From Lama guanicoe (lineage: Eukaryota): a DNA stretch of 62,000 nucleotides. The translations under genes and the position numbers were made by a program. Of this stretch, positions 4,326 to 62,000 are shown piece by piece (the stretch's first letter is position 1; each line of letters starts with the position of its first letter). The DNA lies in assembly GCA_013239625.1 (NCBI GenBank), contig MU053652.1:4391902-4453901 (forward strand), in the 5' to 3' direction. Below the pieces are notes generated by a model. It made no database searches. It saw only the letters and a program-made list of their open reading frames with translations, and was not told where the DNA came from.

Positions 4326-4470
4326 TTTTTTTCTGGTCTTTAAAAAATATATACTTATTTTTATTTTATTATTATTATTTTCCCCTTAATGAAGGTACTG
4401 AGGATTGAACCCAGGACCTTGTGCATGCCAAGCACACATTCTACCACTGAGCTATACCCCTGACCCTAAG
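4326..4470 (-). mobile_element. tRNA-derived SINE (camelid-like family)
   Basis: Reverse complement ggggtatagctcagtggtag...cctgggttcaatcctcagtacc (A and B boxes), A-rich tail, candidate TSD taagtctt (4318-4325 / 4471-4478). Confidence 0.8.
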
Positions 4471-14615: not shown

Positions 14616-39223
<24,608 letters not shown>

Positions 39224-40712: not shown

Positions 40713-41019
40713 TCTATGTAAAACTGATGCTCGTTCCGGACTGCAAATGAGCACCTGCACACACCTCTTTATCAGGATCTTACTCCTTACCCCACACTGC
40801 CACCCAGATGGCCAAGAAACCCACATCAGAGTCAGGTCAGCATCTCTATGAGACTTGGCTGAGGCCCAGGCCCTGGCTCAGATGTCAGGGAGTTGCATTA
40901 TTTAGCTCAGGAGCCTTTGTCTCCTCCTTGCTCCTGTCCCCAGCTCCTGGTCCTCCTCCTCTCTCGAGGAGCAGCAGAGGGAGAGGAAGGCAGGATCATC
41001 TTCACTGGCCCCCTACCCC

Positions 41020-44000
41020 ATGGAGCAGACAGCCACTCCTGGGGGCCGAGGGCTCCCTTGTAGCCTCAAGCAGGCCTTGGCCCTGTACCAGCGCATCTTC
41101 CACTGCCCTGCAGGCTTGGGCCAGCTCTGGGCTGCCCTGCAGCAGGTGAGGGCGGAGGGGCACTGTTTTCAAGGGGGTGGGCTCTCCGTGGGGCCTGATT
41201 CCACTTTGCCTCCCCAGGTACAAGAGGGCCAGGCCTGTCCCTCAGGCCTGGAACTGCCCACGGTGCTACTGCAGATGGAGCGGAGCCGGCGGGCCCAGGA
41301 GCAGGTAAGGTCCAGCCGGCCAGGGGATGTGGCAGAGGGCAGGGTGGGTGCCCCTTCACATTCTGGCACCCTGTCTTCCTGCAGCTCCTGTGGGACTTGG
41401 AGCTGCTGACCGGGGCAGGGCTGGGCCTCTTCTGGCCCCACCGGGCCCAGCTTTGTGGTCTGAGAGGCCAGGCCCAGTGTGCATGGAGCCAGGGCAGCAT
41501 GCCCCATGGTAGGATGGATGGGGGCTCTGAGCAGCGGACAAGTTGGGTGAGCTGAAGGCAGGGGGGCAGTCAGTGGGACTTTGGGACACTTAAAGTGGTT
41601 GAGAAGTAGAAGGGCTTAGAGATAGAGGGATCTGGGTTCAAATCTCTGCTGACGCTCCTTGTGATTGTGAGCCTGTTTCCTCAGCTACGAAATGGGGAAG
41701 ATAATAGCTCTTTCTCAGGGGGCTGCAGGGGGGACTGTATCTGGTACCCAGGACTGTCCCGGCTCGTTACCATTCCATAGTGAACTATCTTGGTCAAATC
41801 AACTGCGTGTTGACACCTAGAAGCCTTTGGACATGGCTGCAGTGCGGGAGGAAAGCAGGCCTGGTGGGGCCCAGAGGGTGGAGGCACTGATTCCCAGGGT
41901 GCCTCTGAGATGAGACCCTGAGCAGCCCCAGTGCCTGGTCCCTCCCTCCAGGAAGGAGGGAGCTGTGGTGACTGGGAACTAGGATGTGCCTCCCAGTCCC
42001 AGCTCAGCCGTCAACTGCCCGAGGCCTTTTGGGCAGGTTAGTAGCTGTGGCAGGAGAGGGTGTTAGCGATTACCACTGAAGAAGTGTCCAGCCAACACTT
42101 TTGGCCAGGACTACAGTCTCAACTGAAGGCTAGAGTGGGCAGGAGGGATCCATTTCCAAACTCCTTCACTTGGAGGGGAAGAGGAGGGTGGTCACACAAG
42201 GACACGGATACCAGGAGGAGGGATCACTGGGGGCTTGGAGGTCGCCCACTACACTGGAGGTTGATGCCCTATGGACTAGGCAGCCCCCAACCCTTCCAGA
42301 GTTCCAGGCTGTGCTCATCGCCTCCTGCTGAGGACTCCCTGAACCAGACCCATCAGCTCCTGGAGGGGTGAGCCTTTCTCCCAGGGAATTTCATCCACTC
42401 CATGTTGCCACACTAAGCAACCAAGCACTGGATCCTTCGTTCTGTCTCTCTCCATACCCCTGCCCATCGACCCCTCCTCATTCCCCCAGCTCCTCCTGGG
42501 GCTCTCACTCAATTGTATCCATAAATATGGTTGCCCACAGCCCCTGGAAAGGGTAACCTCGAGTTCCAGCTCCTGGGACCCAGTGATGGGTACAGAGTTG
42601 GGGAAAGATACCCTGGACTGAGCTTGGGTGTTGGAGTGGGACGGCTTAGCAGCCTACTGGGGGCAGGGAGTCTGGGAGGCAGGGTGCCCCTGTCTCTCCA
42701 GAGCCCAGATGCAAAAGGTGCATCTGAGGCAGTCTTTGCATTCCTGCAGGGGGCAGTCGGTGGACCCATCATCAGCCCGGGATCTAAGTGAAGCCAGGAG
42801 TAATGCAGACCCAAGGTGGGAGAGCCCTGGCATGCCTGCAGAGTCCACGCCTGGTACGTTGACAGGAGGGGTTAGCAGCCAGGAGAACAGGCGTCCCTGG
42901 GCTGGAGTGGCCAGCCTAGGTTGGGAGGATTGGGGAAGCCCTCACCCCAAGTCCTGGGATTTCAGTCCATCCTCACCTATTCCTTGCCTCGTACTTTTTG
43001 GGGGGGTGCCAGGGGCACCCAGGGACAACAGGTAGATTTTCTTTTATATGCCAATTCCACCTGATTAGTACCAGCTGTCTCAGGCACTGTGTCCAAGAGG
43101 ATTCTGAAGCTAAGCTGGGGTACAGAGGGGAGAGAGCTGGGAATCACTGTCCACGGCTGCCCAGGGAGGAGGGACTTGAATGGCCGCTCCAAGCTGCCTA
43201 GTTGCCACCCGCATGCCAGGCACTGGGGAGAAACAGCACAAGAGAGACTTGGCTCATCACTTGTCCTCATCTCTAAGGAAATCATAGCCTAGTGAGAGAG
43301 TATGACAATAAACAGGCGATCAGAACTCAGTAGGATGGATGCTGTGAGCCCTGGGCCTGTTAGTTTAAATGAAACAGGCTCTCAAGTGATTTGTTAAATA
43401 ATAGGCCTGGCAAAGTCATAAGCCTTCAATTGTGCCATCATGCCCGGGAGAGAGGAGGAAAGTGCCAATGATTATTTCTGACCGACAGAGAGATTTTTAC
43501 AAGTATATTATTACCTGGGAAGACATTGTGGGAGACATCAATTACAACACTACAACCAGAGAAATAAATGACCTAGTAAGACAACAGATCAGAATGACAA
43601 GGGGACAGGGGTTGGAGGTTATTTTCACAGTTCATAGCAATAATTTCTAAAGGCTTGGGAGTCTTATTAGATTCTTTTGTTTGAAACTCTTCAAAAGACA
43701 GATTTGTTTTCACAGAGAGCATTCCCATTTGGTTACTGTTATGAATATTCACACATCCATATTGCATAAAGATGGCATTTCTTGTGAGAGTTCTCAATTT
43801 AAGACCTTACAAAATCAAGTTCTTTTAACTAGTTTTATGGATGCAAAACAATGCTCCTTCCTCCACAGCTGCAAAGGAGCAGCGACATTTCATCTTTTTT
43901 TAGATTCCTTTTGTTCATTAGGAAGACTTGCAGTTTTTAGGTTAGCCTCTGGCCTAAAATTCCACTTCTTGAATTTCACTTGATTTTTCTGTCAGAAACC

Positions 44001-46724
44001 AAGAAAGAGCTAAGGAGGATTATCCTAAATAGTAAGAAACTAAGGTCCATATGGTGGGGCTGGGTAGGCACACAGGGATAAAGTGGGGGTAGTCCTTATG
44101 AAGGACTGACAAGCCAGGTAAAAGCAGTCCCTTCCTGCTCCTAGGCCTACCCTGGTGGTTCTGAGGAAGAGGGTGTGCAGGTTCCTCTGAGGTGGTCCTT
44201 GGCTGGGAGGATGAGGAAGATGGGGTCAGCTGTTGGCACGCAAACCTGACAAACAGGCACATAGCAGACTGTGTAAATAAAAGGGGAGTGATGAACTGTG
44301 ACAGCCTTGAAATCCCAATACCAGTCCTCAGGGTACCTCCCTGCTTCCATGCTGGGGACTCCCTAGGTTTCTTGGTTCTGGTTCTGGTGGAATGTGTGTG
44401 TGTGGGGGGTGCTGGGACAGGAGCAGAGGGCTCCCAACATCAGTCTTTGTCCCGCAGGTTGCTTACAAGAGCTGAACCCCACCACCACCGGCAGTTTTGG
44501 GGAACCAGGAAGCTCAGAGTTCAAGGTGAAAGGGTTGAAGGGTCCTGGGCAAGACCCCTCTCAGATTGGGGATAGCAGGGGTTTGTCTGGGAGGAGGCTG
44601 CTGGGGTGAGAAGCCCACTCACTGCCAGGTGGAAGAAGGGACTATCAGTGAAGCACCTTTTCTATTATATAACATGGATTTAATGAATTCAGGAAAAAAG
44701 GCAAGGGCCCTTACAGGCCCACTGGGGTCTCCAGGGTTCCATGCGGGACATGGCCCTAGCACAGGGGGTGCCTCAAAAACCTGGGTCAAAGTGTTCTTCC
44801 TTCCTAGGACCTGACCCAGAGGGATGAGAGGGGCCAAGCAGAGCCCACAACCCAGAGGCCCAGTCGATCATCATCCAGGAGCCTACAGGAGAAAAAGCTT
44901 GCTCAGGGAGCCCCAGGACCCTCAAGCTTCCCGCCCCAGGGCCTGCCAGAACCCCAAGATCCCCTGGAGGGGCTGGGCTGCAGCCCAGGCCAGGAGAGAG
45001 CAGAGCTTCAGAAGCTGCTAAGGATTGAGATGATTCAGAGTCAGAGAGAGGAGGACCCTCAGGAGCAGAAAGAAGAGACCCCTCAGGATCAGAGAGGGGA
45101 GGCCCCCCAGGGGAAGGACAAAGACTTTCCTCAGAGGAAGAGAGAGAAGACACAACAGGGTCAGAGTGTGGAGGCTATGCAGGCTCTGAGGGAAGAAGAG
45201 GTCCCTGAAGGGCAAAGGTGGGAGGCCCCCCAGGGTGAGAACAAAGAGGCTCCTCAAGGTCAAGACAGAAATCACTCTAAGTGTCAGAGAAAGGAGGCCC
45301 TCTTGGAGCAGAGTGAGGATTCTCCTCAGGGCCTGGAAGTGAAGATCCTTCAGTCTTCCGACGGCAGAGGCTGTCTCTCACAAGCCCTGGAGGTGGCTCA
45401 GGGAGAGGCGCCTACACTGCCCTCGGAGGAAGGCGGCTCCCTGGGAATTCCGGGGGACTTCTGCAGGTCCCTGGGAGAACAGATGCCGCAGCCTGAAAGC
45501 CGGGAGAGCCCAGGCCCCCGGGGAAGGACCAACCAGCTGATGCAGGTTAAGACTGATGCCTGGACAGGAGAGTCGGCATCGGCCGTGGGAGAGCAGGGGC
45601 CCGCCCGGGAAGGAACGTGGGTTCCCCTTCCGACCCCGAGGCCCCCAGCCCAGCCGCCACTCCCAGGCCCAGGAGTGGTGATGCTAGCGGCCCGACACAC
45701 TGGGGGCTCCGGGCAGCTGGAGCACCTTGCAGCTCCCTCGGGGCACCCGGGCCTGGTGCGCGATCCGTACGCGCTTCAGGGCCCGGGAGGAAGCCCCAGC
45801 CCCGCGGAGCAGGAGGTGGGCGGCTCCACGGGGCTCCCGGGCGCCCTCGGGGAGTCGAGGGGTGGCGCCGAAGCCCCCAAGGCCTCGAAGGCCGCTTGGC
45901 CCGAGCCCCCGGGCAGGAAGAGGTCGTCGGCGGGTGTGAGCGCGGCGCAGCAGGAGACGGCTCTTCAGCGGCTGCTGGAGCTGCACCGTGAGGCTAGGCG
46001 CCGCCGGCGGCAGGACCGCGGGCAGCAGCAGCTCCGGGTGCGCGGCCGGGCCGGGCCGGGCGGGCGGGCGGGCGTGCTGTCGGGACACCGAGGGGCGGCG
46101 GGGCGGCCGCTGACAGCCGCCTCCCCCAGGTCCTGGAACGCCTCCGCATCGCCAGGAACCGCCACTGCCGGGTGCACCCCCTGGGACCTCCACCCAACCC
46201 AGCTCAGCTCCCACCACAGGCAAGACCCCCCCCCCCAGGAGAAGGCAGTGGGGCCGTAACGACCCTGCCCGGGCGGGAGGCGGCGGCCGAGCTGGGCGCG
46301 ACCCGGGGCCCTTGGATGTGCTTGCGCCGCGCACTTGCAATGACACCTGCGGAGAGCGGGAGGGGCGGGCCTTCCCGGGTGCTGCCCCTGCTGGCCTCAT
46401 CGAACCCGGGCGCTGGGAGGCGCGGACGCTCAGCGCTCCGTACGGCCCCAGGAGGACGCGGCCGGGCAGCGGCGCGCCCTGCGGGAGCAGCTGGAGCAGG
46501 CGCACCGGGAGAGGACCGGGCGGCTGCGGGCTCTCGGAGCCAGGTGAGGGGGCGAGCGGGGAAATTTGTGGGGTCGTGGCAGTCCTCTTTCCCTGGCATC
46601 TGGGGTGACAGACCACTCTCTCCCCAGGAACACCCAGAACTTCCAGCAGCTACTGTGGCCCCCTGGCGCTGAGGAGCCTGGAGAGTATCGCTCACCATTC
46701 CCAGACTCCTCTAGTCACTGCTGA
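41020..46724 (+). CDS. Uncharacterised multi-exon protein (~742 aa): helical N-terminus, 8-aa E/Q/P repeat region, C-terminal R/Q/E/L-rich coiled-coil-like segment
   Basis: Exons 41020-41145, 41218-41304, 41385-41546, 41952-42036, 42280-42367, 42750-42853, 44458-44525, 44808-46037, 46130-46219 (GC donor), 46452-46543 and 46628-46724 join in frame (2229 nt) without an internal stop. AATAAA at 47138-47147. The middle exons (41952-44525) are less certain than the terminal blocks. Confidence 0.7.
45550..46600. promoter_or_regulatory. CpG island over the 3' exons of the uncharacterised gene
   Basis: Very high GC and CpG density by inspection. Confidence 0.7.
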
Positions 46725-46909
46725 ATCCTCAAAGGGATGATTAAGAGATGGGGGGTTAAGGAAAAAGCAAGAGGTCAGAGAGTTTCAGAACGGCCCAGAA
46801 AGCAGCCTCAGCGCCTGGGAGAGCCAGACAGACACACACGACAGCCTTGCCCCACCAAGAGGTGTGTTATTTCTTTTTATCCCCCCTCAGCCCACTACCT
46901 GGCCTAGGG

Positions 46910-49090
<2,181 letters not shown>

Positions 49091-49550: not shown

Positions 49551-49790
49551 TTAACAGCAACAATGACACTGTGTAACAGCACAGGGAAGAGGTAGTGGAG
49601 AGAAGACACTCAGGCTTCCTGTACCCTAACCAGCCTTGATTTTAATGGCACAGCCCCAGCAACCTAGAAGCCCCTCGCCTAGCCTCTCAGTGGAGTGGGA
49701 AGGGGCAGGGAATTGGAAATCAGAGGCTCAAATCTTAGAGAAGGGCTGATGGCAAGCCTGGGGAGAGGCTGCAGGGCTGTGGGGAGTCCC

Positions 49791-52036
49791 CTAGCGGAGG
49801 TCTTCAGCCGTGAACATGCCCCTGGCCCTGCGAAGGATGGAGTCCTTGGCAGCATCATAGGGGTGCTCCTTGGATGGGATCTCCAGGACGGCCGGAATGG
49901 AGCGCTGGTGGGCATCGAGCGCATGCCGCACCATCTCTGCGATGTACTGGTTGATGAGGATGATGCCAATGTCGTCCCGGTTTAGAAACTGCCTGTTGGG
50001 AGAGATGAGAAGGGAGTCCAGGGCGGTCCACTCTCAGTTGGTGGGCTGGTCTGCAAAGGGGAACAAGCTTGATCCAGAGAGCACAATGGACAAGGGAAAA
50101 GGTTGCTATCTTAAACTTGCTCCATTCTATTCAGAATCAATTTCACTCAAAAGCTAAGGGCCACGGCTTCTACCTTCCCCTGCTTGGAAGGCTCCCAGCT
50201 GAACTGATAATGAAGATAAGGGTGCATGCTGGTGTATTCCATATGCTGCCTTCATGTAAGAAAGGAGAGGATAAGAATACATATGTCTGACCTTTTTATC
50301 TGCAGAAAGATAAGGAAGAAGCTAAGTGGTTATCTGCGGGGTGGAGGAAGGAGGTAATGAAGTAGAAGAGGTCGGGGTGAGAGTATGACTTCTCAATGTG
50401 TGTATCTTTTAAATATTAATTTAGAAACCACATGAACACATTAACTTTTCAAAAGAAAACATTAAATTTTTTCAGGGGGCACTGTTGAGACCACTCAAGG
50501 TCTATGCTGCTAAGGGCAGGGGGTAGATCAGAGGGGAAGTTTGGCCTGAGTCAAGAACACAACACAGGAAGAGGAAAATTAGTGACCAAGGAAATCACAC
50601 TTTCCACATAGAGAACCTGGCGCTGGACTCTTACTTTCATGTGATCCATTCCATGTGACCCATTCATTAATTTATTTACTCCTTAAAAACTATTTACTGA
50701 GCACCTACTCTGTGCCAAACACTAGGGAAGGTTATACTTAATGATTTCTGAGGTCCCTTTTGATTGGAAACTTGGAAAGTTCTTGCAGTAATATTTGTCC
50801 TTCTCTCATGACAACTTGGGTCACTCTACCAGACTGCTTAGGGATCAGCAGAGATCAGCTCCCAGGTAAGGGCCTATCATCCCCCAGGCAGCGGGAACCA
50901 GTTTCAGCCGGCAGCTCAGGACTGGGCTGCTTAGGGAGAAACAGGTAAGAGCGGTTTGTTCCTGAGACTTGGCACAGGGGCCCTAGAGAAGGGGTGTGGG
51001 AAAAAAAGGGAGGACTGGCACCCTCAATTCTAGTCATCAGGACACCTCCTGGATTAAGGGACATGCCTGCACCTACATTTTGAAACTATTGCTCTTAACC
51101 CAGGACAGGAAATGCATATTTGAAGTGCAAGGTCTTAGCAGAAGGTAGGACACAGTCCTGATAACCTGTCCACTGTGCTAAGGGCAATGGGAAATTCCAA
51201 AGCAAACAGAAGACAGCGGCACAAGCAGAGTGTAGACCTGGCTTAAGGAAGGCAGAAAGAGTGGGGACCAGGTTCAAATCCCTTCCCTGCTCAGTCTCTT
51301 CAGCATTGTATGACTTTAGTAGGTACCTTAACCTCTGTGAACTTTTTAGTTTTCTACCTGTAAGTGGGAATACCCACTCCCTACCTTACCTCACGATTGG
51401 GGCCTCAAAGGGATATGAAAATAAAGAAAGCCGAACTCACTGCCCAGGTGTTCAGAGTGTGTGGTTCTTTTAGGGGTCAACTCGCAAAAGAGTGCTTGCA
51501 GTGCCCGAGCCTGCTCTACGGCTGAACTGGGGAGGCCCCTGCAGGGAAGCTGAGTCTGGCCCCCTCCAGGGCCTAGGTGCTCTAAAAGCCCAGCTCCGGC
51601 GGGGCAGGTTGGGCCGAGCGCGGCGCCAGCCCGTCACGAGCTCTGTTCCCCTTCTTTCCTGACACACGGTCATGTGAGGGGGGAGCTTGTGGACCCGACA
51701 TAGCCCCGGTCCCATACGGAGGCCTTCGCTCCGGAAGGGCGGGTGGACCGACTTCTCTGAGCCTGGAGGACGGGGTCTGATACTTCGGTTAAGGTCTGGA
51801 AGCCTCGTGCCGCCCCCGCCTTCCCGCGCTGCCACTAGGCAGCGGAGGGTCCCGTTCAGGCCTCGCGGGCTACCGTACCGGAAAGTGTCTTCGATCTCAT
51901 TGATGGTAGTATCCTTCTCCACCACCAGGAAATTAGGGTGGCGGTTCTTGTTAAGCTCCCCTATGCCGCCCAGCAGGAAGCCAGTCACCGTGTCCTCGTC
52001 TCCGATCACCGCAATTAGCTTCCCCCTCCCCGCCAT
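49791..52036 (-). CDS. ATP6V1F: V-type proton ATPase subunit F, 119 aa
   Basis: Exon 1 (52036-51879) [53 protein letters not shown]; exon 2 (49992-49791) [66 protein letters not shown]. 360 nt, GT-AG intron. Confidence 0.99.
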
Positions 52037-52400
52037 CCTGACAGCCAGGCAGAGATCAGCCGCGACCACCCGAAGTCACCGAAGCCCCGCCTCCGCAGCG
52101 CACCGCCTTTTCGGCCGCACCTCCACCCGTCAGACATGCGCAGTTCCACCACTCCGCCTCCCGGAACATGCGCATTAACAGCAAGAGCGCCTGAATGTGA
52201 ATACGCCTGCGCCATAAAGAGAGGCCAGAACCCGAGGACTACGGTTCCCAGAAGCCCGCGCGGCATCACCGGCTTGCGCAATCACGTTAGCGCGTTCCTT
52301 CAACCAACTTGTGGAGCCTACTGCTGTTAGACACCGAGACGCCGGAGAAGAAAAGACGGTTCTCGAGGGTAAGGTCCGAGTCTGTATCGTGTATGTATGT
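51580..52400 (-). promoter_or_regulatory. ATP6V1F CpG-island promoter with a ZNF143/SBS motif and NRF1-like half sites
   Basis: CpG-dense around exon 1; ACTACGGTTCCCAGAAGCC at 52238-52256; CATGCGCA at ~52136 and ~52168. Confidence 0.75.
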
Positions 52401-55101
52401 AACTACGGCACATAGTTAACAACTACTACGTATTTGTTCAATTAATAAAAGGATGAACAAGTTAATGATGATCCTCTTTAGTGCGGTAGAGCATTGACAA
52501 AGCAATGTGTTAACTGGTAAAATGTGAGAAGTACGTGGAAGCACACTTCAGGTGTAACTAACTCATGGGGGGAGGTGGGGCGCGCAAAGAGGGTTGCCAG
52601 TAGGATGCAGGGGATAGAGATGAAGACAAGAAGGTGTTTTAGGGAAGAGCAATGGCATGTGCAAAGACTTAAGAGACTAGAAAGTAAAAGTGCCTTCAAG
52701 AGAAGTTAAAGGATCTGGAGGTTATCCTGGGAACAAACTTATTCTGAAGTAACTGAAGAAATTTAAGCACGAGAATGATATAAACAGGATCGAGACCGTG
52801 CTGTGTGCAGAGGCAAGACTGAAGGCAGAGAAACCATTGTGGTAATAAGAGATGATGGTGGCCAGAACCCAGGTAGTGGTGATGGGGAATGTGGAGAAGT
52901 AGGTGGAGTCAAGAGATATTTAAAGACAGAATGGGGTTTTGGATTGGATATATTTGGGGTGACCCAGGTGACCTCCAGGTTTCTGGCCTGTGCACCTAGG
53001 TGGACAGGAGTAACATTCCCAATAGAGTGAACTCTGTGAGATGAACATGTTGAAAAGAAAGGGCCACTTGTTCCTCCTCCCTTTTAACAAATAGGCATCC
53101 TGGCATCTGGCATGTGATTTGCAAGTTTAGAGCAGGTGAGACATCCAGCTGGCCTAGTCTAATCGTTGCACGTATGATAGGCTCAGGACTTGAATACATT
53201 TGGTTTGAATTTTGGCCCTGCTTCTTGGAGATGTGATTTGGGACTCATTACCAAAATTCTGAGGACCTTGGTCTCTTCAGATAATAGTATACCAGCATTG
53301 TAGGACTGTTGGGATTAAGTGAGATGGAGTCCCTCAGTGCTCAGCACGCATGACCAGACTGTAGTTGGGGGAGAGCAGCTGGGCTGGATATTCGTAAACA
53401 CATCCACAAACAGGTGGGGAGGGCAGCAGAAGCTGAGAAGGAGGCCAGCAAACCATGCAGGGAAATGCTCCCACCTGGGGCGAGGTGGGAGGGAAGGCAG
53501 AGTGAGGAAGGGTGTGTGTAGAAGCAACTGGTTTGGTGCCTGGCACAGAACTGACCCTTAATGGCCATGAGTGGTTGGGTACTTGAGAATGGATTCTGCC
53601 TTCAAAGGGCCTTTCAGGTTAAGTAGGAAGCTAGGAGAGTGCCACATTTATCACACTCCTTCATTCACCCAGCACGTATCAAATGTGGACATGGCGAGGC
53701 TGAGGACCAAGATTGATAAAATGCGATTTCTGTCCTCAAGGAGCTCCCTCAAGATCGAGGGGAGAGTAGAAAATATCACGAGGAGGTGGGTAGACATACA
53801 GAGTGGCCCTGGAGGGGTCTTGAGGGGGCAGGACTCAGGAGAGGTAGGGGAAAGAAGAAACTTAAAGAGGAGTTGGGAGGCAGACAGGTTACCCAGTGAA
53901 GGTAGGGGGGATTCGGAGGCAGGCTGTGTATGTTGCATTTGCTCTGGCTGACTCATCACCGTGTGCTGAAATGCTTGGGGTGAGTCTAGAGATGGGGGAT
54001 CAATTGAGTGAAATGCTGCTTTACTCTGCTCTGGCTACTTAGTTGCTCATGCGTTTATTCATTCATCATAGCTGTCTGTATTAGACCTCCCAGGGTCAAA
54101 GGGCTCAGTCTGGTGGGGGAGACAGATCCTCTAAGATACACGGTCACAGATCAAAGTAGTAAATGCAGCCAGAAATGTGCTCCGGGGCAGTGTGAGAACT
54201 AGGGGGCTTCAGGAAAGCTTCCCATTGGCCAGAAGATGAGTGTGGAGAGGCAAGTGTGTTCCTGGGCAGAGGCCCAAAATGCCACATGGGTGCCTGGGAA
54301 ACCAGAGGTTGTGAGGAGAAGTGGAGGTGGAGGGCACACTGCCTGACTCTGGGCACTTTTTGAATAAACAGGTAGGGAGGCTGGTGTCTGAACCTAGAGA
54401 CCTTGGAGGCCTCATTAGGACACGTAGACTAGCCCGAAGCAGAAGGACATTCAGAAGGGCCCTGGACCCGAAAGGGCCATCCATAGTCCCTTTGATGTGA
54501 CCCCCTCTGGCTGCAGCATGAAAGGTGGGTTGGAGGGAGGTTAGTGGAGGGGCCAGTTCAGGAAGGAGGCCCTAAGCAAGGTCAGGGCTGGAGGTGGGGA
54601 GGGAGCAGGCCCAGACTGACCCAGGACCTGGCGGGAGTGAAAGAGCCCTGGGTTTGCATGAGGTTCTGCCTGCCTGCTGAGCGAGGAGCATTCCTGCTTC
54701 CGTCAGTGCTGCTTTAAGGTCCTAATTTTGAGAACATCTTTGAAATCAGGCTGAATGGAAACTGGCCTCCTGGTGGTCCTAGGGCAGTCTTCTAGAACGT
54801 AAGTGTCCACCTCCCTTTCCCACCCAGCAGCTCTCCAGGAATCTGAGGACGAAGACCACATCCCTGACACCCCACTGCCATCCATGATTCTTTCAAGGAA
54901 TCTGCCAGCATTCCAGACCTCCCCACAAAGACGGCCCAGCGGTCTGCCCCAGGTCCTTCCCCTTGGTCTGAGTCAGTCCCCCAGGGATCAGGCAGCCTGG
55001 CCTCTGCCTCCTGGGGCCTGGTTCAGTGTCAGCAGCCAGAGACAGCCAGCCACGGGGAGCCCACGCACAAGGAACAGCCAAGCCTCTGCGACAGGCCGCA
55101 C

Positions 55102-55107
55102 TTTATT
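55102..55107 (-). terminator. FLNC polyA signal AATAAA
   Basis: tttatt on the + strand about 690 nt past the FLNC stop. Confidence 0.7.
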
Positions 55108-55795
55108 TGGAGTTTTCCACCTAAGCAGCTCCCAGCTGAGCCGCATGACATGTGCAAAAATCCCCCCAGAAAGCTGGGCCTCGCAGTGTGTAAAAAAGGC
55201 CCCCCATGGGGCAGAGCTGTGCAATCATAATAAAAAAAAAAAAAGAGAGAAATCAGTCCCTCAGGAAGCCTGGCTGGGATCTAAATCTCCCAGAGCCAGG
55301 CCACGTGCCAAGGCTGCTGCTGCTGGTGTGGGGTCCGTTTTCTCCTCGGATTGTGCTCTCTTCCAAGTCCTTAACACTCTGGGGTTGTGGCTGCCAGAGG
55401 GGCTGGACGCAATCCTCAGTGGCAAGGAGGCCTGGCCAGCAGTGCAGTTGGAGGGTGACCTCTCTCACACACACAGACACCCCCAAACATGTGCTCCCCC
55501 ACTGGCCTCAGCCCCACCAGAAAACGCAGGGTTTCCCTGGCCCCCCAACCCCCAGTCCACTCTCATGTCACGTTTGAGGCAAGGGACATGGCCCCGGGAC
55601 AGACAAGGCCCTCCAACCCCAGGGCCCTGGTCGGGTGGGGGTCAGAGCCACTCAGTCCACCCCAGGGCAGGTGTTTGAGGTGTCTGATTCTGCGTGTGTG
55701 CATCTGGGTGTGGCCCTTTTGCGTGTGTGTATGTGTGTATGTGAGTGTGTTTGGCCAGAGGTGGGGGCCGAGGCTGGGGGAGGCACTTCTGGGAT

Positions 55796-58700
55796 TCAGG
55801 GCACGTTGACTTTGAAGGGGCTTCCGGGAACACTTTCGTCGCCCCACTTGACGATGAGGATGTAGTCCCCTTTCTCCTTGACGGTGTAGGTGACGTTGTA
55901 CACTCGGTTCCCCATGTGCTTCACGTACACCTCCTCACAGGGGGTCTTGGGCCCATGCACGCCCACCATCATCATGTTGGTGCCTGGAGAGGAGGGCAGT
56001 GAGGGACAGGCTCACACCACAGCCCTTGGCCTCACGTTCTTGTGCATTTGCCCACCCCAGGAAACTGGCCCCTCTCCCCCAGTGACTTGCCTGCTTTGCT
56101 GCAGTCCACGGTGAAGGAGTTCTTCTGGCCCACGAAGGCCTGGGACAGCCCGGGGCCCCGTGTCACCACCTTGCTGGCATCCGAGGAGAACTTGGGGATG
56201 GAGCTATAGCTGGAGCCCCGGCTTGAGGACGACTTGGTCACAGTCTCCACCAAAACCGTGGATGTTTCATGAAGGCTGTGGCCTCCAGACAGCCGGGGAC
56301 CTGAGAGGCAAGAGTGGGGCGGCCACAAGCCAGGTCAGTGGCATACCCTTCCCTAGGTGAGCCCTCTGCCGACACTGACAGCCCCACGTTCCCTTCCTCT
56401 GCTGTAGCATCCTAGGAGTGGCCCCCCAATTCCTAACGAGCCAGGGAGGCAGGGCAGGCTTATCTTGAGGTCTGGGGCCTCGGATGGCTCCGCCCCCCCT
56501 TCTGGGCTTTGTCTGGGACCCCAAGTCACAGGGTAGAGTCTTGCTTTAAAAAGGAACATGTATCCAACTAATCCTTCATGCAGCTTCCAAAAGGAATGCT
56601 GGCTAAATATTTACTGAGCTCTCTCTTCTTGGAAGCCAGAAGGGCAGAAAGCTAAGTGAAAGCTTGGGGAGCCACCACAGGGAAAAGATTAGTTGAGTGA
56701 TGGACAACAATAAAGAGGGAGGATTTGATTTTTGAAAAATGATCTACATGAGTCCATGTGGAGAATGTAGAGAATGGTGTGCTGTGTAAAGCCAGGCCCG
56801 CTTTATCCCTGGTAACCTGACCTTGATGTTTGGGGCAGATATGACATGGGTGTGACTGGCTACCGGAGTCAACCAGGACTTCCCCCCTCCAGGACACTCA
56901 CCTGTGACTTTGGCCTTGAAGGGGCTGCCCACGATGTGCTGTGGGCCACCATACTTGATGGCAATGAGGTAGTTGCCAGGGGCCATGGGAGTGTAAGTGA
57001 CCACGTGGCCCTCAGGACACTCCCGACAGTCCAGCTGCACCTTGGAGGGGCCGTCAATGGTGACAGACAAGGCCCCTGAGCCCGCGTTCAAGGTGTTGAC
57101 GATGAACTCTGATGACACGCCTGGGACCAGAGGTAGCAAGGGTGTAGGCAGAAAGGGTTTGGGGCCCAGAGGTGGGTGGGCTGGAGCCCAGGCTCCCTGG
57201 AGCAGGCCTCTGTGAGGACTCAGAGCTCATCAGCACTGCCCCAGGACTGGGGGCTAAGCACCCCAATATCACCCCCTCCTCCCAGCCACTCACCTGTAGT
57301 GCCTCCCTCAAGCCCAGGACCGTAGGCTGACACCAAGCCTGGGTCTCCAGCCTGGCTCTGCTCCCCAACGCGGATCTTGAAGGGACTGCCAGGGATGTGG
57401 GCACCGTTGAACTTGACATCGATGGAGTGGACGCCATTCTCATGGGGGATGAAGCGGATGGTGTGCTTGTCTGTGGGGCAGAGATTGTTAGGTGAGCTTT
57501 TGTCCTTCCCCTCCCTTTCCAAGAAGGTCCTGGCCTGACAGGGACTGGGCTAGCTCACCACTGTCCAGCTCGGAGACGTAGCACTCCTCCACTGCACCCG
57601 AGGGCGTGTGCACCCTAGCATCGATCACACCCCGAGCACCGTTCAGCTGCACCGCAAAGGACGCCGGCTGGTTCACCTTGAGCCCCGTCTCCTGTAGAGG
57701 TCACAGAGGGTGCTCAGACTCCTGGGAGGGTCTGGAGCGCTCCTGTCTGCAAGCTGGCACTGCTTTCACCACATACCCAGCCTGGCTCCTGCCGCCTGGC
57801 CCAGCTCCCAGAGGCCCTCAGCAAGACTACAGTAGCGGTAGGGGGCTGGGTCTGTGACCCCAGCATCCACCTGCAGGAGGTGGGCCCACTGGCTGTTCTG
57901 GGCAGGTAGGGCACCAGAGATGACGTGCCCTGTCCTGGCTGAGGAGGTAAGACCCAGACATTGTAAAGCGGGCCCGATGACAAAGCTGCTAGAGCTGTGT
58001 GGACCTGATGAGGAAAGAGGAGAGTGGCCTGGACTGGCTAGCGGTGCTCAAGGGGGGAGGTGGGCCAATGGGGAGGCTGGGGGGGGTGGGGCACAGAGCC
58101 CAGCTCTAGAGTGGGGGTAGAGCTGGAGGAAGGAGAAACACAAGGGTTCTGATAAGACTACCCTGAGCCACAGCTGGAAGGGGCATGGAGCCCCCTGCTG
58201 TACAGATACTGGGAGAGAGGAGATGTCTGTCTTGACCTTTGAAGGTCACTGCTAAGTCCCTGGCCACATGGGCCTGCCATCCTCTACTCCTGCCCATCTC
58301 TCAGGGTGGCAGAGGGGCCCCATCCCTGGGCACACACCTGGAGGCTGGTGACAGTGAGACGGCGAGCATCATCTGAGAGGGAGGCCACGGGTACCACAAA
58401 GGGGCTGTCTGGGATGTGCTCATCGTTGAACTTGATGGAGACCTCATAGTCACCTGAGGAGGGAAAGCCAGTCAGCATAGGCCCCAGGATGCAATGGCAA
58501 GGCAGAGCCACCTCCACCCTCGCCTCTTCCAGGACAAGCTCCTGGAGACAGATGTGCATTCCCCGGGTGTGGGGTGAAGGTAGACAGCAGAGAAAGAGCA
58601 GCAGCCCAGGTGAAGAATCAGTTCAGTAGTCCCTTCTCCTGCCTGGTCAGTGAGCAAGAGGCCCGTCTAGAAGGTTATTCAGGCCCAGCTCCACTGTGGA

Positions 58701-61700
58701 CACCCACCTGGTTCCTGGACAACATAGGAGACCCCACAGGAGCCATCTTTGCGGTCCTCAAATGCAATCTCCGCCTTGCTGGGCCCCTCCACAGCAATAG
58801 ACAGGCCCCCGGCACCTGCTTCTCGAGTCCAGATGCTGAATTCGGCTGGAGACGGAAGCAGGACAGGGGCGGCTGTTCAGCACCATTGCCCATCCTGCCA
58901 GCTGCCCTGCCCCCATCCCCTGTCTCAGCTTCCTCCCCCTTACCTGGCACACCGGCCACCCCTCGCTCCAGCCCTGTGCCTCCAGCCCGCACCTTGTGGG
59001 CACCACCTTCACCCAGTGGCCCCACGGTGAACTGAAAGGGGCTGCCTGGCACATGCTGCCCGCGGTACTTGACAGTGACCGTGTGGGGCCCCATCTCCTG
59101 GGGCACAAAGCGCACACTGTATGCGCTGTCCTCCCCCTCCACGATCTCTGCAGCTTCTGTCTTGCCGGACGGGCTGGTCACCTGTGCGGTCATATCCTGA
59201 GAGCTGGCCTCACCTGCAGGGGGTGGGGTGTGTCAGGGTGACACTTGGGCTGCTCCTAGCCCCTTCTTCCCTCCTTAGTAAAACCCTCCCCTTGCCCCAA
59301 GGGATGGAAGGCCCAGCCTCCCCAGGAAGACCCTGGCCCTGCTCACCCTCCTGCTGGCGAGTGATGCTGCCAAAAGAGCCCAGGCGTTCTCGGCCCAGAA
59401 AGTCCCCGAAGACGGTGGGGAAGGGGTCTCCGCCAACCTGGGTGGACTCCTCCACCCGCACCTCACGCTTGGTCTCCCCGCCCCGTGTCTTGCTAATCTC
59501 TGTGCGCTCTGTGCGGGTATACGTGTGGCTGCTGCGGGTGAAGGTGCGTGTCAGGCGCTCCTGGGCAGACACCATCTGGAACCAGTTCCCTGTGGGACAC
59601 ACAGAGCCAGGGAAGGGGAGGGGAGGGAGAGGAGAAATGAGCCAGCAGGACAGAGACCCTGGGGGCAGGCTCGGGGCCCTCCCCATTGCCCCACCCTGCC
59701 CAGGCTCTTCCTGGCTCCCACCTGGGATCTTGAGGTTGAGGTCGCAGGTGCTGCCGATGGTGGCGATAGAAGGCGCCTGCCTGCGCCGGGTGATGCTTTC
59801 CTTCATGCGGCCCTCACCGGTAACCTTCACCGTGAATGGGCTTCCTGTAGCAGGAGAAAGGGGTCTTAGATCCCTTGCCTCTAGCCTCCTGGCTTGTCTT
59901 ACCCACCGCCTGGACTCTTACCCGGCACATGCTTGTCGGCAAACTTGATGTTGATGATGTAGGTGCCAGGTTCAGTGGGGCAGTAGGTGACTTTGCATGT
60001 GCCATCCTCCATATCCTCACAGTTGATGTCCACCTTGCTAGGGCCTTCAATACTCAGCCCCAGGCCCCCATAACCTACCGGGAAGCAAAGGACACATCTC
60101 CCTCAGTCCCCACTGCCATTCTGCTCTCCCCTCCCCAAACTGCAGGCTCCATCCAGAATGGGCACCCCAGGTCTATCATAACCACTAACAAAAGATGGCT
60201 CAGCAGGAGGAGAAGGGGCAAGCAAGGCACTGACCCAGATGGTCAGGGAGAGGCAGTCTTGGAAATTCCCTAGGGCAGGCTTCTTGGGTGCCAGTGAGTG
60301 AGACAGAAACTCAAGACAGCTGAGCTTTCTCTTAAATGTGAGAGAAGTGACATGGGGCCCACTTTCTTCATTGGGCCCCAGAATATGAATCTCAGCAGAG
60401 ACTGGGCCAGGAAGTTCAGGGAGGAGGGTATGGCCAAGGGGCATGGGGCAGGAAAGAAGGACTAGTCCTCATTAGAGGCACCAGCTGAAATGAGGGGTCT
60501 CTGGGACAAGAAGCACCTGCATTACGAGTGTCCACGATGAACTCCGCCACCTGGAACGTGTGTCCCTCAGACAGGCCCTTGCCCCAGACCCGCACCTTGC
60601 TAGCGTCCCCGATCTCAGACGGCCCCACCAGGATCTTGAAGGGGCTATTGGTGACGTGCTTGCCGCTCTTGCGCACGCTCACCACATGCTCCCCAACCTC
60701 CTTGGGGGTGAAGGAGATGCCTGTGGAGAAGAGGGGTCAGGCATGGAGCCCTGGGCCTGGCGGCGTCCCTTCCCGGCTCCCCCCAGGCCCCTCCCTTGGC
60801 CCCATGCTCACCAATGTGCCGGTTGGGCAGGCGCTTCAGCAGGCAGGGCTCCTCATTGCCCGATGGGGCACGGATGCTGGCAGTCAGCTGGCTCAGGTCA
60901 CTCTCGGTGATCTTCAGTGACACATCCGTGGAGGTGCCCACGTTCAGCTGTGAAGTCCTCATCGAGTCATCGCCTGGGGGAGAGTTGGCATGTCAGGCAG
61001 TGTGACTCCAGGCAGGCCCTGCCTTCATGGAGCTCAGGAGACCTCCTGGCAGATCCTGCTGGACTCAGCAGAGACTGGGGGCCACTCACAGGCACAGAGA
61101 AACTGGGGAGAGGGCAATCTTCATTCACATTTAGCTGCCAAATGTGGGCCCAGCACCCTAGTCCCCCTGAATCGGTTAAATCCCTAATTTACACAAATTT
61201 CAATCTTAAGTCACATGATTTTATGGAGACAAAACACTAGACTGGACTAGACAACACAGACCCTTTACTAGCTGTGTGGCTCTGATCAAGTTGCTTAGCC
61301 CCTCTGAGCCTACTGGTTTCCTCAGCTATCAAAGGGAATTAACAATACTCTAACTTGAAAGCCTCAACAAGATATGTTTCAGAGCTGGGGCAGGGGAGGT
61401 GGGGGTGGGGGTGGCTGAATGTTTCTCACCTGCTGTAGAGAATAGAATTACATCCTTACATTCATCCAGAAATGAACTCTTCCACCTCAAGGGGGCCCTA
61501 CCCTAATGCCTGGTGACTTGAACACACCAGGCTTGTACATCCTTGTGTGCTGGGGATGGGGGGTGTCATAGGCTGTGGGTACCCACATGTCCACCCACCT
61601 GTGATCTTGGCTGTGAAGGGGCTCCCCGGGATGTGCTTGTCATCAAAGCGCACGATGATGCTATAGTCTCCAGGCGCCGTGGGCAGGTAGGATACAGTGC

Positions 61701-61983
61701 AGGTGCCATCCTTGTTGTCCTTGCAGGTGATCTCTGCCTTGGACGGGCCCTCCACGGCCAAGGACAGACCCCCTGTAGGTGGAAGTGGGGCTGAGATCAG
61801 AGGTCCTGATCAGCTACCCCTCCCCCTCACAGCCCCTGTCTGCAGCTCCCTCACCTTCCCCAGCATCCTTGGTGACAATGGTAAAGGTGGCCGGCTTGTT
61901 GACCATGCCATGGCTCAGGCCTGGCCCATAGGCACTGACATGGCGGCTGTTGATGGCATCCACGTAGAACTGCAAGGGGCTCC
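55796..61983 (-). CDS. FLNC: Filamin-C, 3' part (last 15 exons; C-terminal Ig repeats including the muscle-specific Ig20 insertion); continues beyond the window
   Basis: Exons (-): 61983-61855, 61772-61599, 60973-60812, 60720-60517, 60074-59922, 59844-59722, 59589-59347 (243-nt insert [50 protein letters not shown]..., FLNC-specific), 59213-58944, 58845-58708, 58453-58338, 57691-57559, 57470-57294, 57120-56902, 56300-56091, 55983-55796 ending SPFKVNVP*. Repeated HIPGSPF filamin motifs. Confidence 0.98.
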
Positions 61984-62000
61984 CTGGGGGTGGATGGAAA

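Follow-up and report, generated by a model that had tools for sequence, protein, structure and literature searches.

What is encoded between KCP and ATP6V1FNB in the guanaco, and is it a gene of its own? We analysed a stretch of 62,000 nucleotides from Lama guanicoe (assembly GCA_013239625.1, contig MU053652.1, positions 4,391,902 to 4,453,901 of the forward strand), which we call the window and number from its first letter. An earlier note, made from the letters alone, had described an intact protein-coding gene on the + strand between KCP and SPMIP1/ATP6V1FNB, and the frame, the splice sites and the conservation agree with that description. We believe with good confidence that this is a genuine single-copy protein-coding gene common to marsupials and placentals, that it is the orthologue of LOC141578239 of Camelus bactrianus, and that it is its own transcription unit. 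It is already automatically annotated in RefSeq, and it stands there without a stable name, family or assigned function.

Exon structure and relatives

Guided by the Vicugna pacos model, we rebuilt the exon chain on the + strand as 10 exons with 2124 nucleotides, encoding 707 amino acids. The parts of the gene are as follows.

41020-41145, + strand: exon 1, start codon 41020-41022, donor gtgagg; first helix of the conserved N-terminal block (N block)
41218-41304, + strand: exon 2, 87 nucleotides, phase 0, acceptor ctccccag, donor gtaagg; 90% identity to orthologue P0073 by tblastn
41385-41546, + strand: exon 3, 162 nucleotides, carries the invariant core LWDLELL..G..L.LFWP; 98% identity to Vicugna P0075
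42300-42367, + strand: exon 4, 68 nucleotides, end phase 2, acceptor cccttccag, donor gtgagc; within the gap-free fit to Camelus
42750-42853, + strand: exon 5, 104 nucleotides, end phase 1; 95% identity to Vicugna P0075
44458-44525, + strand: exon 6, 68 nucleotides, end phase 0
44808-46037, + strand: exon 7, 1230 nucleotides, 410 codons; disordered middle rich in P, G, E, S and Q, with the last ~35 codons beginning the conserved C-terminal block (C block)
45042-45111, + strand: tandem repeat of 24 nucleotides (8 residues), 2.9 copies, inside exon 7
46130-46219, + strand: exon 8, 90 nucleotides, GC donor at 46220
46452-46543, + strand: exon 9, 92 nucleotides, end phase 2; second C-terminal helix
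46628-46724, + strand: exon 10, near-invariant RNTQNF motif, stop TGA at 46722-46724
47138-47143, + strand: AATAAA, likely poly(A) signal, ~415 nucleotides past the stop and the sole AATAAA or ATTAAA on the + strand in 46700-47600

An in-frame stop lies upstream at 40903-40905, the ATG at 41020 is the first one downstream of that stop, and the aligned methionine of exon 1 is the start in most of the full-length orthologue models that we aligned. All of the junctions singled out in the earlier note (41145/41218, 41304/41385, 46037/46130, 46219/46452 and 46543/46628) have AG acceptors, and the donors are GT except for the GC at 46220. The AATAAA at 47138 is where it was said to be, and the N- and C-terminal peptides quoted with it are present in the sequence.

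The number of exons is a different matter. The chain first proposed had eleven, and we found it in the sequence exactly, with 2229 nucleotides, 742 codons plus a stop and phases of 0,0,0,1,2,1,0,0,0,2. As a gene model it is not supported by the orthologues, which point to 10 exons and 707 amino acids. The longer chain differs from ours in two places.

41952-42036, + strand: added exon of the eleven-exon chain, open and with good splice sites, outside the 707-residue camelid model
42280-42367, + strand: next exon of the eleven-exon chain, instead of 42300-42367

No fetched orthologue matches the added exon or the 5' extension to 42280 in that frame. The only orthologue that overlaps 41952-42036 is a monkey-like model (P0065), which uses a different frame that contains a stop in the window. 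We regard the extra exon as possible but unsupported. Nearby, the frame of exon 4 stays open upstream into intron 3 (42045-42371, + strand), and monkey and bear models (P0007, P0102 and P0093) begin there. This open frame suggests an alternative first exon or promoter, which would give a protein without the N block.

The closest relatives are other camelid models. Our 10-exon model aligns without a gap to the Camelus bactrianus protein XP_074223978.1 (P0126; uncharacterized protein LOC141578239, 707 amino acids), with 670 of the 707 residues identical. For Vicugna pacos XP_072820625.1 (P0075), 699 of 707 are identical, leaving 8 differences, and the Vicugna model has 77 extra residues. In tblastn, orthologue proteins match the exons at the locus (P0073 and P0075, with the identities listed above).

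More distant relatives come from four filtered hit lists, and the figures given here are for the matches listed. The named placental relatives are camelids, ruminants, pigs, cetaceans, horse, carnivores, bats, shrew, armadillo, tree shrew, Old and New World monkeys, lemur, gibbon, rodents and rabbit, and there are three marsupials (Macrotis, Antechinus and Sminthopsis). The translation of exon 7 alone matched at least 48 cluster representatives, at least 18 of them with an E-value of 1e-30 or lower. One cluster contained a JGI protein (P0055), which is KCP. We also scanned metagenome contigs for DNA of an orthologue, and none of the 598 pattern matches was a relative.

Conservation is concentrated at the two ends of the protein. 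The camel and bilby proteins align at both ends (E-values of 1e-23 and 9e-28), and between them there is low-complexity similarity only. Across 28 sequences, 11 columns of the N block never vary, the core lying at columns L72-P89, and across 6 sequences from five orders the same holds for 66 columns of the C block. The window model and at least 18 fetched models with both ends carry the family motifs, which are LWDLELL..G..L.LFWP in the N block and ..LLEL.., RDREQQRLRV and RNTQNF in the C block.

Splicing can also be followed in the relatives. The join of exon 8 to exon 9 is read in Rangifer, Dasypus, Chlorocebus, Hipposideros and Eumetopias, as well as in P0083, a pig-like open reading frame (ORF) of 544 amino acids from a read-assembly contig of 3112 nucleotides. 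P0083 crosses six of the nine junctions, running from exon 4 through exons 5, 6, 7, 8 and 9 into exon 10. We take P0083 to be spliced RNA, because genomic DNA would not read straight across those joins.

The assembly (2.05 Gb) contains one copy of the gene. As queries, the C block and the N block found no paralogue in it and match only this locus (next-best E-values of 0.13 and 0.34).

What we see is one orthologous gene whose automated name differs from species to species. The relatives are titled either "uncharacterized" or with spurious low-complexity names (collagen-like, glutenin-like, atrophin-1), and the Camelus dromedarius model XP_064343874.1 is titled "retinitis pigmentosa 1-like 1 protein". 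As the earlier note had supposed, no source gives a real gene symbol, and the gene already exists as automated LOC models such as LOC141578239. The novelty that it implied was overstated, as RefSeq models exist for dozens of species. A literature search by six LOC identifiers returned no publications, and a search pairing ATP6V1FNB with KCP returned nothing related by title and abstract.

The predicted protein

We folded the Camelus orthologue with AlphaFold2, using an alignment of 26 sequences. The mean predicted local distance difference test (pLDDT) was 43.7, and 560 of the 707 residues were below 50. The C-terminal part was predicted with confidence as a helix-loop-helix, with helices at 584-630 (pLDDT 81-93 by 10-residue blocks) and 648-675 (63-84), which are long in the predicted monomer. 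In the same full-length model there were weak N-terminal helices at 16-28, 33-45 and 55-80. This prediction and the camel-bilby alignment both agree with the earlier proposal of two conserved helical ends joined by a disordered linker.

The layout that we propose from these models has three predicted helices at residues ~15-90 around the LWDLELL..G..L.LFWP core, and a predicted basic helix-loop-helix at residues ~584-675 that ends in RNTQNF. Between the ends there is a fast-evolving, repeat-derived and disordered spacer of ~450 residues (12% P, 12% G, 11% E, 10% S and 10% Q). Repeat expansion is the probable origin of this spacer, because the marsupial orthologues have, by eye, many more octapeptide-like units in the exon 7 repeat region.

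Such a protein would be a flexible scaffold or adaptor, with the two helical ends as its binding modules. Each end would fold on a binding partner or on self-association, and the disordered middle would act as a linker that tolerates changes in length and sequence.

We searched for domains and solved structures, with little return. Pfam gave no family at an E-value of 1 or lower in five orthologues and exon 7 (VWC PF00093, VWD PF00094 and TIL domains were not found), and nothing meaningful at 10 or lower in four orthologue C-terminal fragments. Sequence searches of the PDB found no solved relative, with nothing for the N block and best E-values for the C block of 0.05 (CCDC22) and 0.07 (CENP-I), both of which we took to be chance coiled-coil matches. 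A structure search with the full model returned generic single long helices only (Z of 5.9 or lower, all rows tied). There was no usable match in the ESM Atlas, and a search of the window with Rfam found nothing within the gene.

Neighbouring genes and the case for a separate gene

Outside the gene, Rfam found two tRNA-like sequences in the window. These and the neighbouring genes are listed here.

4390-4461, - strand: tRNA-Ala-like sequence (anticodon GGC), Rfam 46 bits
~16997 to 39221-39223, + strand: KCP up to its stop, located from its terminal open frame and from tblastn matches of two models that contain KCP
20065-20139, - strand: tRNA-Ala-like sequence (anticodon AGC) inside KCP, Rfam 58 bits
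40151: AATAAA, likely the KCP poly(A) signal
48404-49078, - strand: presumably SPMIP1/ATP6V1FNB, on which the gene converges
49679-52075, - strand: open frames that we take to be ATP6V1F
~54000-62000, - strand: what we take to be filamin C repeats, the 3' part of FLNC

Both tRNA-Ala-like sequences may be tRNA genes or tRNA-derived repeats. The gene order presumably matches the human 7q32 arrangement, in reverse. In the window the gene lies on the same strand as KCP, past its 3' end and before ATP6V1FNB, and in other species this position is seen indirectly, through models that fuse it to KCP.

Those fusions raise the question of whether the exons belong to KCP. They could be an alternative 3' module of that gene, forming the end of a long isoform made by read-through or as a conjoined transcript. 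The gene is on the same strand and starts ~1.8 kb past the KCP stop and ~0.9 kb past the likely KCP poly(A) signal. The rabbit "kielin/chordin-like protein isoform X2" (P0161, 1962 amino acids) has VWC and VWD Pfam domains together with the whole C block, and there are further fusion models in Microtus (P0186), Pteropus alecto (P0101) and Monodon (P0050). Exon 1 even contains an internal AG at 41112-41113, with a pyrimidine-rich run before it, which fits the in-frame join of P0101 that skips the last exon of KCP. This AG could be a real minor read-through acceptor. The match to the Monodon model begins nearby, at 41104.

However, the fusions do not agree with one another. Pteropus joins in the middle of exon 1, rabbit and Microtus join within exon 2, and the points at which they leave KCP differ too. 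The fusions look like merged predictions because both the join points and the KCP exits vary. In addition, KCP retains its own terminal exon, stop and AATAAA, and most of the full-length aligned models begin at the conserved methionine of exon 1. Conservation of the ~30 residues ahead of the internal acceptor extends to marsupials, and a pure 3' module of KCP would not need them. In our reading the fusion models reflect merged predictions or minor read-through and the main form is a different one, and we give the KCP module only a small chance of being correct.

The other possibility within the locus is a decaying or non-functional frame in this lineage, which a T-poor, GC-rich composition keeps open in place of selection and whose transcription would be no more than noise. 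Composition certainly helps. The window's longest stop-free run, 483 codons, contains exon 7, and in 1000 dinucleotide-preserving shuffles of 44700-46300 the stop-free run averaged 243 codons, with 16 shuffles giving at least 410 and one reaching 483. The openness has weak evidential value because the stretch is T-poor. There is also an antisense open run of 321 codons at 45684-46649, probably due to composition alone. The middle of the protein evolves fast. Among the matches listed in the four hit lists there is no Homo, Pan, Gorilla, Pongo, Mus or Rattus model, and the sole ape model, from gibbon (P0162, 273 amino acids), matches the monkey protein in frame only past about residue 98 and has a stretch that does not align ahead of the C block.

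Against decay, the ten exons are open and their splice sites intact, and the camelid alignments described above show no gap with Camelus over 707 residues and just 8 differences with Vicugna. Conservation of the terminal blocks spans marsupials and camelids. The GC content at codon positions 1, 2 and 3 of exon 7 is 0.73, 0.54 and 0.71, a three-base periodicity in the coding frame. We consider decay very unlikely. The case above chance rests on the conservation of frame and splice sites in other mammals and not on the length of the open frame.

The 3' part of the gene also overlaps a CpG island.

45600-46500, no strand: CpG island from the end of exon 7 through exon 9, GC 0.76-0.78, CpG observed/expected 0.68-0.85

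This island over the 3' coding exons could conceivably mark a promoter, internal or antisense. Around exon 1 the sequence is poor in CpG, and a 5' region of this kind suggests tissue-restricted expression. Four RNA-seq runs from one study, labelled "reproductive system metagenome", contain 0.17-0.21 of the words sampled, and we give these shares no weight as evidence, on tissue or otherwise.

Several observations weigh against a genuine gene with its own transcription unit, or against parts of that reading. The identity of the middle is ~45-65% between orders, which is roughly not far above the neutral expectation. With its composition, an open frame as long as exon 7 is only moderately improbable (16 of 1000 shuffles). 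The transcript support consists of one spliced pig-like contig ORF and automated models made by others. Other read-assembly ORFs of the pig cluster (P0116, P0117 and P0119-P0123) and P0004 of the warthog cluster run through the exon 7 donor, which is what genomic DNA or unspliced RNA would give, and P0083 is the single spliced contig. When the N block was folded alone, confidence was low, with helices at 16-27, 33-45 and 54-80 at pLDDT 50-71. As for a scaffold function, we only infer it.

The 3' ends are a further difficulty, as they vary among the automated models, some of which retain intron 8 and some of which use another frame in exons 9-10. The Vicugna and dromedary models have 77-82 extra residues compared with the 707-residue model, with intron 8 read as coding. 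We read the extra 77 residues of Vicugna as a retained intron 8, and in the window a run of 11 C at 46226-46236, just past the GC donor, shifts that frame. Intron 8 looks weakly defined and prone to retention, because a change in the length of the poly-C run would shift the frame. Across 46452-46724 a second frame is also open, and several carnivore, rabbit-like and rodent models use it in exons 9-10. We counted differences from fox models by hand over these two exons, and 4 of 44 residues differ in the main frame compared with 8 of 42 in the other. The numbers are small, and the counts would fit selection on the main frame.

With these points considered, we still favour a separate and genuine gene. 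Why it has no name may have to do with where it seems to be missing. One idea, which we hold tentatively and consider more doubtful than not, is that the family occurs in marsupials and placentals only, that neither conserved end has a detectable relative in a known family, and that the gene has stayed nameless through erosion or loss in great apes and in Mus and Rattus, with an intact copy kept by most other mammals. The missing gene name would then be explained, because great apes and Mus/Rattus are the two lineages that drive gene naming. If this is true, a conserved mammalian gene, which may have a link to the reproductive tract, is invisible to the human and mouse literature and to model-organism biology. 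The conflicting titles from automated annotation illustrate how a low-complexity protein comes to be mislabelled and how adjacent genes come to be fused with KCP. As a discovery the gene is modest, as the databases already contain it.

Comparison with known systems

We also asked whether the C block could be a diverged form of the ALMS motif, or the protein a relative of CCDC187, either of which would point to a protein of the centrosome or basal body. UniRef gives the Vicugna entry the title "Coiled-coil domain-containing protein 187", and we presume CCDC187 to be grouped with ALMS1-related proteins. By eye, the C block resembles ALMS-motif exons of this genome in its extreme C-terminal site after long disorder and in a helix, an "HPL" turn and a second helix that ends N..(R/Q)..F. 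Profile searches in both directions speak against the ALMS motif, for CCDC187 the block searches described above gave no second locus in this assembly, and we find either reading hardly credible. Pfam PF15309 (membership threshold of at least 27 bits) matched none of four orthologue C-terminal fragments at an E-value of 10 or lower, and its scan of the assembly found exons of three other genes (best 63 bits) but no match on the contig of the window. In reverse, we made a profile from 33 distinct C blocks, and its score on those ALMS-motif loci did not exceed 4 bits (E-value of 2.2 among 650 frames). The exon boundaries of the ALMS motif, read from the exon edges, are different. Among the 94 C-block profile matches listed, there is no ALMS1, CEP295, C10orf90 or CCDC187 name beyond the Vicugna UniRef title, and the only members of a named family are the KCP fusions. 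Other orthologues with UniProtKB titles (Rangifer and Camelus bactrianus) are titled "Uncharacterized". We rejected membership of the ALMS-motif family at the sensitivity used.

What remains of the ALMS comparison is an analogy of layout. The motif-bearing proteins ALMS1, CEP295/KIAA1731 and C10orf90 are linked to centrosomal functions in the published account (PMC2965680). They share with our protein a long disordered body and a short conserved C-terminal helical motif. They differ from it in exon structure as we read the exon edges, there is no profile match either way, and our protein has a conserved N block.

KCP resembles the gene in strand and adjacency, and several annotation pipelines merge the two. 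However, KCP has VWC/VWD-type domains and this gene has none, and the gene has a separate conserved start. The proteins that lent their names to its orthologues are collagen alpha-1(I), high-molecular-weight glutenin, atrophin-1, basic salivary proline-rich protein, MAP7D1, GPRIN1, RP1L1 and MICAL-L1. Their likeness is one of composition only (rich in P, G, Q, E and R), and no domain of any of the eight was found in the orthologues of this gene. NCBI gives "-like" names when no named orthologue exists. The closest comparison is with the RefSeq models XP_074223978.1, XP_072820625.1 and XP_064343874.1, which are the same gene, with 95-99% identity and the same exon joins and neighbours.

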